From positions 122 through 64,121 of the forward strand of contig JBGSZT010000054.1 of assembly GCA_041750255.1 (NCBI GenBank): a stretch of DNA of 64,000 nt, in the 5' to 3' direction. This DNA is from Synechocystis sp. GTDB lineage: Bacteria > Cyanobacteriota > Cyanobacteriia > Cyanobacteriales > Microcystaceae. Below, one piece after another: positions 46,311-47,627 of the stretch; positions within the stretch are counted from its first letter, which is position 1, and each line of letters starts with the position of its first letter. Position numbers and translations under genes: made by a program. A model generated the notes under the pieces. The model had not been told where the DNA came from. It made no database searches and saw only the letters and a list, made by a program, of their open reading frames with translations.

Positions 46311-46976
46311 CTATGGCTTTTTTGACGCTAGCATGAGGCCATCGCCCAGGGGAACCAGACTCGTAATAATACGCTTGTCCGTTGCTAATTTTTGATTAAA
46401 AGCTCGTAGGGTAAGGGTCGTCGGGTCTTGAATGGTTTCATCGGCGACCTTGCCATACCAGAGGATGTTATCCACCACAATCACTCCCCTGGGACGTAGA
46501 AGTTGCAAACTATATTCAAAATAACGGTCATAGTTGCGCTTATCCGCATCAATGAAAATTAAATCAAATCTATCTTTTTTTTCGTGGTGAAGAAGTCGCT
46601 CTAGGGTTTCTAGGGCCGGCGCTAAATACAGCTCTATTTTCTCTTTCACACCGGCTCGTTGCCAAAAATCTGCGGCGATCGCCGTATCGTGAGCACTAAT
46701 ATCACAGGTGATCAAACGCCCAGACGGGGGCAAGGCTAAGGCGATCGCCAGGGCACTATAGCCACGAAAGGTACCAATCTCTAGCACCTGAGTCGCTGAC
46801 AAGAGGTGAATCAAGAGCGACAAAAATTGCGCTTGCTCCGGGGTGATCTGCATCTGAGCACCGGAGAGATGGGCGGTTTCCTGTCGGAGCTGGGCTAGCC
46901 AAGGGGATTCTGGGGCGGTGAGGGAACGGAGGTAGTGTTGTAGAGATGGCTCAAAGCCTGTGGTCAATTTTGTCAT
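46311..46976 (-). CDS. Cation-dependent O-methyltransferase (caffeoyl-CoA OMT-like)
   Basis: [30 protein letters not shown]. Confidence 0.93.
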
Positions 46977-46991
46977 GGGATTTGGCTTTTC

Positions 46992-47627
46992 TTAGCCCGG
47001 TTGAGTAAAAATACTCAGTAAAACCGGGCCCAGGAGATAATAATGCCCCTGGCATTGCAAACCGCTAGTTTGGGCTAATTCTTGCCGTTTTTGGGCTGAG
47101 TAAAATTTGAGCCCACCGGGCGTTAAGGATAGCGAAGACCCCAGGCATCGGGGGCTGTAATCTGCGAGATAAAATTTTCCTTGGGGGCGTAAAACCCGCG
47201 CAATTTCCTGGAAAACCCGTTGGGGGTCTGGGTAATGCAAGAAACTAATGGTATTAAAGACCGCGTCAAATTGGCGTGCGGCTGAAGCCGTGCCTTTGGC
47301 ATCGCCGCTGGGAATAGACTCCGCATTACCGGGACAAAAAATAAGACGGGGATGGTGCTGGTTTTTGCGGCGGGCCTGACGTAGCATTACCGGAGACAGG
47401 TCTAGCCCCAGCCCCCGCAGATCTGGAAAGCGAGCCGCTAGGCGATTAAGAAATTTACCTGTCCCACAGCCAAGATCCAGTACCTGGGCTTGGGCCGGTA
47501 AGCTGACGTAGTCCAAAAGCCTCTGGTGAATGGCTTGATAAAACACCGTCGTCAATAAACAATCGTAGCCAGGGGCCCAACGGTCAAAAAAGTCGGTTTT
47601 TTGCTCGAAAAAAGATGTTTTTGACAT
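46992..47627 (-). CDS. Class I SAM-dependent methyltransferase with an 8-aa insertion
   Basis: VLDLGCGTG, GLDLS, FDAVFNTISFLHY, RVLRPQG. Confidence 0.92.
   Translation of the reverse strand: MSKTSFFEQKTDFFDRWAPGYDCLLTTVFYQAIHQRLLDYVSLPAQAQVLDLGCGTGKFLNRLAARFPDLRGLGLDLSPVMLRQARRKNQHHPRLIFCPGNAESIPSGDAKGTASAARQFDAVFNTISFLHYPDPQRVFQEIARVLRPQGKFYLADYSPRCLGSSLSLTPGGLKFYSAQKRQELAQTSGLQCQGHYYLLGPVLLSIFTQPG
47277..47300. mobile_element. 24-bp small dispersed repeat (SDR5-like) inserted in a HIP1 site
   Basis: GGCG|TGCGGCTGAAGCCGTGCCTTTGGC|ATCGCC; removing it restores GGCGATCGCC; contains two mini-hairpins. Confidence 0.8.

Follow-up and report, generated by a model that had tools for sequence, protein, structure and literature searches.

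We found that a gene for a class I S-adenosylmethionine (SAM)-dependent methyltransferase in a Synechocystis-type cyanobacterium contains, in frame, a 24-nucleotide (nt) micro-element that splits a highly iterated palindrome 1 (HIP1) site. The gene lies in a 64,000-nt stretch (the window) of assembly GCA_041750255.1, referred to here as genome G000; other G-numbers denote the genomes compared with it and C-numbers denote contigs. With a probability that we put at about 0.8, the 24 nt are a non-autonomous element of the same kind as small dispersed repeat 5 (SDR5), belonging to a subfamily, A24, that is specific to this genus and is added at HIP1. The feature is real, and it differs from known SDR5 in length, hairpin geometry and lineage.

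Read directly from the sequence, window positions 47273-47306 consist of GGCG, the 24-mer TGCGGCTGAAGCCGTGCCTTTGGC and ATCGCC (Table 1). Excising 47277-47300 gives a perfect GGCGATCGCC, the 10-bp form of HIP1, which no alternative 24-nt cut achieves, and the insertion point falls between G3 and A4 of the octamer GCGATCGC, with target bases neither duplicated nor lost. The only long open reading frame across the insert is the methyltransferase gene (46992..47627, minus strand), whose coding strand reads GGC GAT, then exactly eight codons (GCC AAA GGC ACG GCT TCA GCC GCA), then CGC CAA, giving PSGD-AKGTASAA-RQFD. Sequence, reading frame and codon layout thus agree in every detail with the first-pass annotation, which had described a 24-bp HIP1-targeted insert in frame in a methyltransferase. 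The two abutting mini-hairpins and the missing target duplication that it had also described are seen in the sequence and in the predicted fold: as single-stranded DNA, either strand of the 34-mer forms a three-way junction in which the HIP1 halves pair (GGCG/CGCC) alongside hairpins 1 and 2 (-9.2 and -9.5 kcal/mol, z about -2.0 and -2.3, for the two strands). Hairpin 2 is closed by an A (47301) from outside the 24 nt, with which the right HIP1 half begins. In the window itself there is no second match to the 24-mer at up to three mismatches (0 expected).

Elsewhere in G000 (3.59 Mb in 197 contigs, 47.5% G+C, with 2694 HIP1 octamers, 2355 of them in the 10-bp form) we found two relatives of the window 24-mer at up to two mismatches and four at up to four mismatches, each at a HIP1-type site, and a further copy on C171 with four mismatches to the TTTA consensus, for an A24 total of six copies. 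Searching the genome with the 3' half of A24 uncovered a sister family, A21, of 15 copies, in which the 21-nt unit TGCGCGAAGCGTGCCTTTGGC stands between ggcg and atcgcc. Hairpin 1 is the sole difference between the two families (four base pairs and a 4-nt loop in A24, three base pairs and a 3-nt loop in A21). The 21 family-A copies are spread over 18 contigs, 16 of them with exact GCG and ATCGC flanks and five with one degenerate half-site. Hairpin-1 loops in other copies, congeners included, are TTTA, TTCA, ATTC, TTAA or GATC with the stem retained; those of hairpin 2 are TTT, CTT, TTC, GAT, TGC or TTG across copies, on a constant GCC/GGC stem, and the derived loop GAT is common to three unlinked copies (on C40, C97 and C197). 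Some copies begin with ATCGC, and we considered a 5-nt target duplication, which was rejected: those five nt belong to the covarying hairpin 1 and are TAGGC in Nostoc.

All GCG-N(18-36)-ATCGC inserts on both strands were clustered genome-wide by same-length identity, which replaced a single-linkage clustering by 10-mers or 12-mers that had collapsed into giant chance components. Three families only were recovered: A21, A24 and the unrelated B24. The last is CACCGC-GTA-GCGG-ATCTC-TGC-GAG between GCG and ATCGC, is present in 12 copies at up to two mismatches, and folds into the same ((((..hp1 hp2)))) three-way-junction topology as A24 and A21. All three families follow one plan: 2 nt, hairpin 1 and then hairpin 2, for whose closure the right half-site supplies its A(T). 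About 33 of about 2730 HIP1 sites in G000 are occupied, always at the G3-A4 bond, which bears out the earlier expectation of related inserts at other HIP1 sites. The split-site scan also met a 42-nt tandem repeat, ATCGCG-GAGGAAGCTCCCCCGGTCGTTGAGGAGGCACACATT, at two contig ends (C105:32-110 and C164:22468-22550), which we rejected as a HIP1 insert.

Comparison with related sequences argues that the 24 nt were gained. All 10 orthologues (same genus, family or order; 49-72% identity) lack the eight residues, as do all 44 aligned homologues, and the host protein minus these residues has exactly the orthologue length. The usual spacing is thus restored by removing the insert, as the first-pass annotation had proposed, and an eight-residue loop shared with orthologues was not seen. 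Among the best 119 database matches, the spacing at the loop is five residues in 103 and nine in 7 (the pattern was unmatched in 9), and none of them reaches the 13 residues of the window protein. At the DNA level, the joined flanks of the 21 family-A copies were searched against the genus (Synechocystis in the GTDB sense; its members include G001, G004, G008, G009, G011 and G012); G008, the closest congener, could be aligned at five loci and has clean 21- or 24-nt gaps at all five. A different case is an A24 copy in a class-V aminotransferase/cysteine-desulfurase-like gene that is common to G012 and G011 (AKGTA(N/I)AA between GD and RL), 17-25 residues after an HK motif that presumably holds the pyridoxal phosphate (PLP) lysine. 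Because this copy is common to two species-level congeners, some inserts must be old and stably kept. In the G011 copy, the hairpin-1 loop GATC creates a new internal GGCGATCGCC, a potential nested target.

The recurrence of the inserts also settles the weakest alternative, an indel of the ordinary, lineage-specific sort, or the loss elsewhere of an ancestral loop, with a chance resemblance to a HIP1 insertion: the loop between strands 3 and 4 does vary in length among distant PDB homologues of class I methyltransferases, but A24 lies at five other HIP1-type sites with 27 related or analogous inserts at the same bond, 10 orthologues and 44 homologues lack the insert, and its excision restores a perfect 10-bp palindrome, and we therefore consider this explanation refuted and its probability negligible.

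SDR5 was reportedly described from Nostoc punctiforme and other heterocystous cyanobacteria by Elhai, Kato, Cousins, Lindblad and Costa in Genome Research in 2008. Later reports state that SDR5 inserts between nt 3 and 4 of HIP1 (GCG^ATCGC; PMC4390886), in agreement with the site given in the first-pass annotation, that its length is 21 nt (PMC13756078), and that SDRs were not found outside Nostocaceae (PMC5861425). We found that the dominant HIP1-split 21-mer in Nostoc KVJ20 and CCCryo 231-06 is TAGGCGTAGCCCGCCGYAGGC between GCG and ATCGC. A21 matches this 21-mer in length, bond and two-hairpin plan and agrees with it at about 14 of 21 positions, and its differences at positions 3 and 11 are compensatory (against a consensus derived here from the two Nostoc genomes). 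A sister family with the SDR5 length and architecture of the dominant Nostoc HIP1-splitter fits the suggestion of a related or new SDR family. For A24, the resemblance to this consensus is limited to the 5' T, the GCC/GGC stem and the G that precedes hairpin 2.

Hairpin 1 covaries strongly. Among 75 distinct 21-nt variants from many genomes, pair 3-11 of hairpin 1 is C-G in 20, A-T in 19 and G-C in 25, for 85% Watson-Crick pairing (64/75), compared with 29% (22/75) in a control in which each partner was moved by one position; pair 4-10 is G-C in 57, A-T in 6, G-T in 6 and A-C in 1. The hairpin-1 loop is G-N-A in 37 variants and its exact inverse, T-N-C, in 18. Likewise, the window loop TGAA (47283-47286) is the reverse complement of TTCA in the C40 copy (81242-81265). 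The strong covariation and inverted loops indicate that selection acts on the structure of hairpin 1 and that this hairpin can flip, and the reverse-complementary loops suggest a flip-flop inversion of the hairpin.

A collection-wide scan detected the A21-type unit in named cyanobacteria other than Nostocales, namely Snowella, Synechocystis, a Microcystaceae metagenome-assembled genome (MAG), Chroococcus, Geminocystis, ‘Cyanobacterium sp.’, Xenococcaceae, Crocosphaera, Chroococcopsis and Limnospira. With a generic pattern (any hairpin 1 plus a fixed GCC-NNN-GGC, 21 nt), for which reversed-pattern controls gave 0-2 matches per genome, units were found in 31 of 35 genomes of family f7, with up to 127 copies, and in 5 of 18 genomes of the host's family. 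We read f7 as Nostocaceae because named Nostoc and Anabaena matches carry f7 variants. Among 251 genomes of the order, A24 is confined to this genus, with two analogous 24-mers elsewhere, and B24 occurs in 22, including G012 (6 copies), G011 (8), G096 (18) and G091 (14), and in 0 of 13 Nostocaceae sampled. Actinobacterial, proteobacterial and archaeal pattern matches were rejected as elements, the actinobacterial ones being a conserved stretch in G+C-rich DNA.

Two further observations concern SDR5-like sequences in other genomes. An SDR5-like core, GCGTTCGCG(T/C)AGCGTGCCG(G/T)AGGC, is followed by ATAGC, not ATCGC, in G062 (MAG CAVUSO01; e.g. loci L022, L047 and L049) and also in Anabaena, Scytonema and Sphaerospermopsis (loci L031-L068), where longer conserved repeats (gtaggg...attcggg; 19 copies in one MAG) enclose it; this looks like a derivative living outside HIP1. 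Nostocaceae also have SDR5 arrays with irregular spacing of 42-350 nt (G357:C1:6160361-6162540 and 4597897-4598135, G276:C35:504-682), comprising 14 copies in 2.2 kb, another 5 within 240 nt and one array with a 50-nt period; they probably represent repetitive coding regions in which HIP1 sites are scattered.

The host protein has the VLDLGCGTG motif (the GxGxG SAM motif), precomputed matches to Pfam PF13847, PF13649 and PF08241, and PDB homologues with E-values down to 2e-10. Its AlphaFold2 model has a Rossmann-type fold (mean predicted local distance difference test score, pLDDT, 89; predicted template modelling score, pTM, 0.88). Residues 110-117 come from the element and fall in the loop that joins strand 3 (GNAESIP, 95-99) to strand 4 (FDAVF, 120-126), beside the SAM-binding motifs. 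Residues 100-119 are modelled as coil, and the inserted residues score lowest (pLDDT <50 at 113-115). The insert is a predicted disordered extension of a surface loop that probably leaves the enzyme intact. The earlier proposal of protein remodelling by in-frame peptide insertion holds generally: 16 of the 21 family-A copies sit in stop-free frames of at least 200 amino acids (aa), every one in frame, with eight sense and eight antisense to the host frame, and with peptides such as CAKRAFG (between A and IA) and A(K/E)GTLRA (between GD and R). Since units of 21 or 24 nt have no stop codon in the frames used, genic insertions survive as loop extensions of seven or eight residues. The host gene and its downstream neighbour (46311-46976, minus strand, 221 aa) lie tail to head, 15 nt apart; the neighbour resembles a Methyltransf_3-type O-methyltransferase, as judged from sequence only, and has an intact GGCGATCGCC at 46740-46749.

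Several observations weigh against our reading of the insert as an SDR5-kind element added at HIP1. The congeners differ widely in HIP1 content, with 47 copies of GGCGATCGCC in G008 and 17 in G004 versus 2355-2827 in G000, G012 and G009. The orthologous sites in G008, which is almost devoid of HIP1, are not HIP1; we therefore infer a pre-existing HIP1 from its perfect restoration and have not observed one. In a collection of 5.8 billion proteins, the methyltransferase has no homologue closer than 71-74% identity, and neither a fresh insertion nor a donor is seen in any strain-level pair, the closest relatives being at about 70% DNA identity. Of the earlier statement that the family is ‘active in this lineage’, the part that stands is therefore insertion since the split from these rather distant relatives. 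Fold thermodynamics are modest (z from -0.7 to -2.3 across the families tested). The Nostoc 21-mer TAGGCGTAGCCCGCCGYAGGC is presumably SDR5, as judged by length, site and secondary citations. Finally, searches with Y1_Tnp and RVT_1 gave no enzyme tied to the inserts, and the mechanistic part of the reading is what we infer.

The low HIP1 content of G008 and G004 bears on how these two genomes can be used. Both are without elements because they are nearly HIP1-free, and we rejected them as an ‘element-free’ contrast set for gene content, since both simply lack HIP1. At several loci G008 is the closest relative of G000 despite its near absence of HIP1. Having HIP1-poor and HIP1-rich genomes in one genus implies that HIP1 was gained or lost wholesale within it.

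Under the SDR5-kind reading, a pre-existing HIP1 in the methyltransferase gene (GGC GAT^CGC on the coding strand) would have received the 24 nt between G3 and A4. New copies would be made from existing copies, as identical derived variants (loop GAT) occur at unlinked loci. Placement would depend on a host-encoded or trans-acting activity specific for the G3-A4 bond, which may read the folded single strand (the HIP1 halves and two hairpins) and not a particular sequence; such reading of structure would explain why unrelated sequences with one fold use one bond. Mini-hairpins of the d(GCGAAGC) type are very stable, and a DNA intermediate is slightly favoured over an RNA one by the G-N-A triloop, which a C-G pair closes. 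The bottom-strand bond GCGAT^CGC is, we believe, the cut site of AsiSI/SgfI- and PvuI-type enzymes, a lead and not a result. In a broader version, which is possible although we think it unlikely, a system guided by structure and independent of sequence would land at HIP1 and copy into the G3-A4 bond any unit of 21-24 nt that folds as two hairpins on the paired HIP1 halves.

Other routes of copying were weighed against the same data. One is an RNA intermediate, as Elhai and colleagues reportedly suggested for SDR elements in 2008, with a folded RNA reverse-transcribed into a nicked HIP1 site. The top strand does tolerate G-T pairs (as G-U), with six G-T against one A-C at pair 4-10 and T-G at pair 1-13 in 40 of 75 variants, and G000 encodes one RVT_1 protein (C107, E = 1e-18). 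An RVT_1 protein is, however, present in all five genomes tested, the copy-free G008 included, and does not discriminate; the eight sense and eight antisense copies give no link to host transcription, RNA parameters do not bring the 21-nt form into the two-hairpin shape, and the loops are G-N-A triloops, not GNRA or UNCG motifs. We regard this route as improbable. About as doubtful, in our view, is copying from one HIP1 site to another by template switching or short-patch ectopic conversion with no dedicated machinery, the half-sites (4+6 nt) serving as microhomology and the hairpins as points of stalling and realignment. The 2355 identical 10-bp sites in G000 would provide ample substrate, and low copy numbers, patchy phyletic spread and the lack of a tie to any gene tested are all compatible with it, as are the exactly inverted loops (TGAA/TTCA; G-N-A 37 versus T-N-C 18 of 75), loop inversion being a known signature of intra-hairpin template switching. 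This process predicts arbitrary inserts, whereas clustering found only the three structured families, and the bond is always G3-A4, never the symmetric centre.

A third route would be single-stranded ‘peel and paste’ by a Y1 HUH transposase of the insertion sequence (IS) family IS200/IS605 or by a transposase associated with repetitive extragenic palindromes (RAYT), with the elements as minimal hairpin-only derivatives. The absence of target duplication, the fixed bond and the hairpins at both ends all fit, and G-N-A triloop mini-hairpins are typical of very stable single-stranded DNA. G000 has nine Y1_Tnp matches (three full length), and the element-bearing Microcystaceae G376, G317 and G138 also have Y1_Tnp. 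Against this, G012 and G011 carry 8-11 inserts without any Y1_Tnp, and Y1_Tnp occurs in the HIP1-rich G009, where the search for family A found no copy. Only one copy has a Y1_Tnp fragment within about 1.2 kb, roughly the chance expectation. We also looked for a two-domain (replication-strand) orientation bias of SDR5 and found none on either of two complete chromosomes from Nostocaceae (n=46 and n=77; 499/500 and 186/500 shuffles equalled the data), although these cyanobacteria may lack a fixed single replication origin. This route thus seems rather improbable. The co-occurring reverse transcriptase or recombinase for which the first-pass annotation had proposed to look was not found, with RVT_1 uninformative and Y1_Tnp not tracking the inserts.

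Table 1. Coordinates of the split HIP1 site, the element and its host gene (window positions), and of copies in other contigs and genomes
Feature	Position	Strand	Basis or remark
Left half of split HIP1, GGCG (octamer part GCG, 47274-47276)	47273..47276	.	Joins 47301-47306 to give GGCGATCGCC
Micro-element TGCGGCTGAAGCCGTGCCTTTGGC, 24 nt, family A24	47277..47300	+	One of six genome copies; top strand antisense to host gene
Hairpin 1, CGGC-TGAA-GCCG, 4-bp stem, 4-nt loop	47279..47290	+	Fold; stem kept across copies
Hairpin 2, TGCC-TTT-GGCA	47291..47301	+	Fold; GCC/GGC stem constant across copies
Right half of split HIP1, ATCGCC	47301..47306	.	Sequence
Host gene, class I SAM-dependent methyltransferase, 211 aa (Methyltransf_11/25/31 type; ‘UbiE-like’ in source names)	46992..47627	-	Pfam, PDB, model
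B24 copies, G000	C53:29596, C55:1218, C66:4857, C117:22093, C170:8965, C192:12262		None in window
B24 copies, G000 (rest)	C10:1520, C31:1120, C40:25590, C130:5869, C90:6202, C92:4832		None in window
Shared A24 copy	G012:C1:1270853-1270884 (L172); G011:C1:3071069-3071100 (L174)		Class-V aminotransferase gene

SDR5 and HIP1 have gone unexplained since 2008 and the 1990s, respectively, and the one HIP1-splitting repeat on record was held to be restricted to Nostocaceae, in which genetic work is slow. With three families (about 33 copies, one bond, one fold) in one Synechocystis-type genome, and 8 copies in the congener G012, the question moves into a naturally transformable laboratory genus. Unrelated sequences share one fold and one bond; taken together, the findings narrow the mechanism to one that reads structure plus the HIP1 bond. 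If the structure-guided reading were true, no class of mobile DNA would be smaller than these elements, which would comprise several unrelated families across Cyanobacteriales, including Synechocystis, and depend on a new enzyme, and HIP1 would gain its first concrete molecular interaction, testable in a model organism. Loops of 7-8 residues silently added to enzymes such as a SAM methyltransferase and a PLP aminotransferase matter for annotation and protein evolution, and such inserts can mislead alignment-based inference.

Among known systems, the Rickettsia palindromic elements, reportedly described by Ogata and colleagues in Science in 2000, are similar in being selfish palindromic repeats that lie in frame in coding genes and are translated as extra surface peptides, and different in their length (100-150 bp), in having no defined palindromic target word and in belonging to another phylum. 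The repetitive extragenic palindromes (REPs) and bacterial interspersed mosaic elements (BIMEs) with RAYT, and the hairpin-only derivatives of IS200/IS605, reportedly treated by Nunvar in 2010 and Ton-Hoang in 2010 and 2012, likewise are said to be short, non-autonomous hairpin repeats that move as single strands to a specific short target with no duplication. REPs are reportedly intergenic, clustered as BIMEs and without a palindromic target, and IS200/IS605 ends are said to need about 40-60 nt each; in addition, Y1_Tnp presence does not track HIP1 inserts in the genus and no replication-strand bias was seen on the two Nostocaceae chromosomes. SDR5 differs from the window copy in being 21 and not 24 nt long (a 3-bp stem with a G-N-A triloop versus a 4-bp stem with a tetraloop), and the window host belongs to a unicellular Synechocystis-type genus of the Microcystaceae, with 6 + 15 copies in G000 versus up to 127 in a Nostocaceae genome. 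The two are alike in using the G3-A4 bond of HIP1 with no duplication, in being very small, dispersed, multi-copy and often in frame in genes, and in having a two-hairpin fold backed by compensatory changes.

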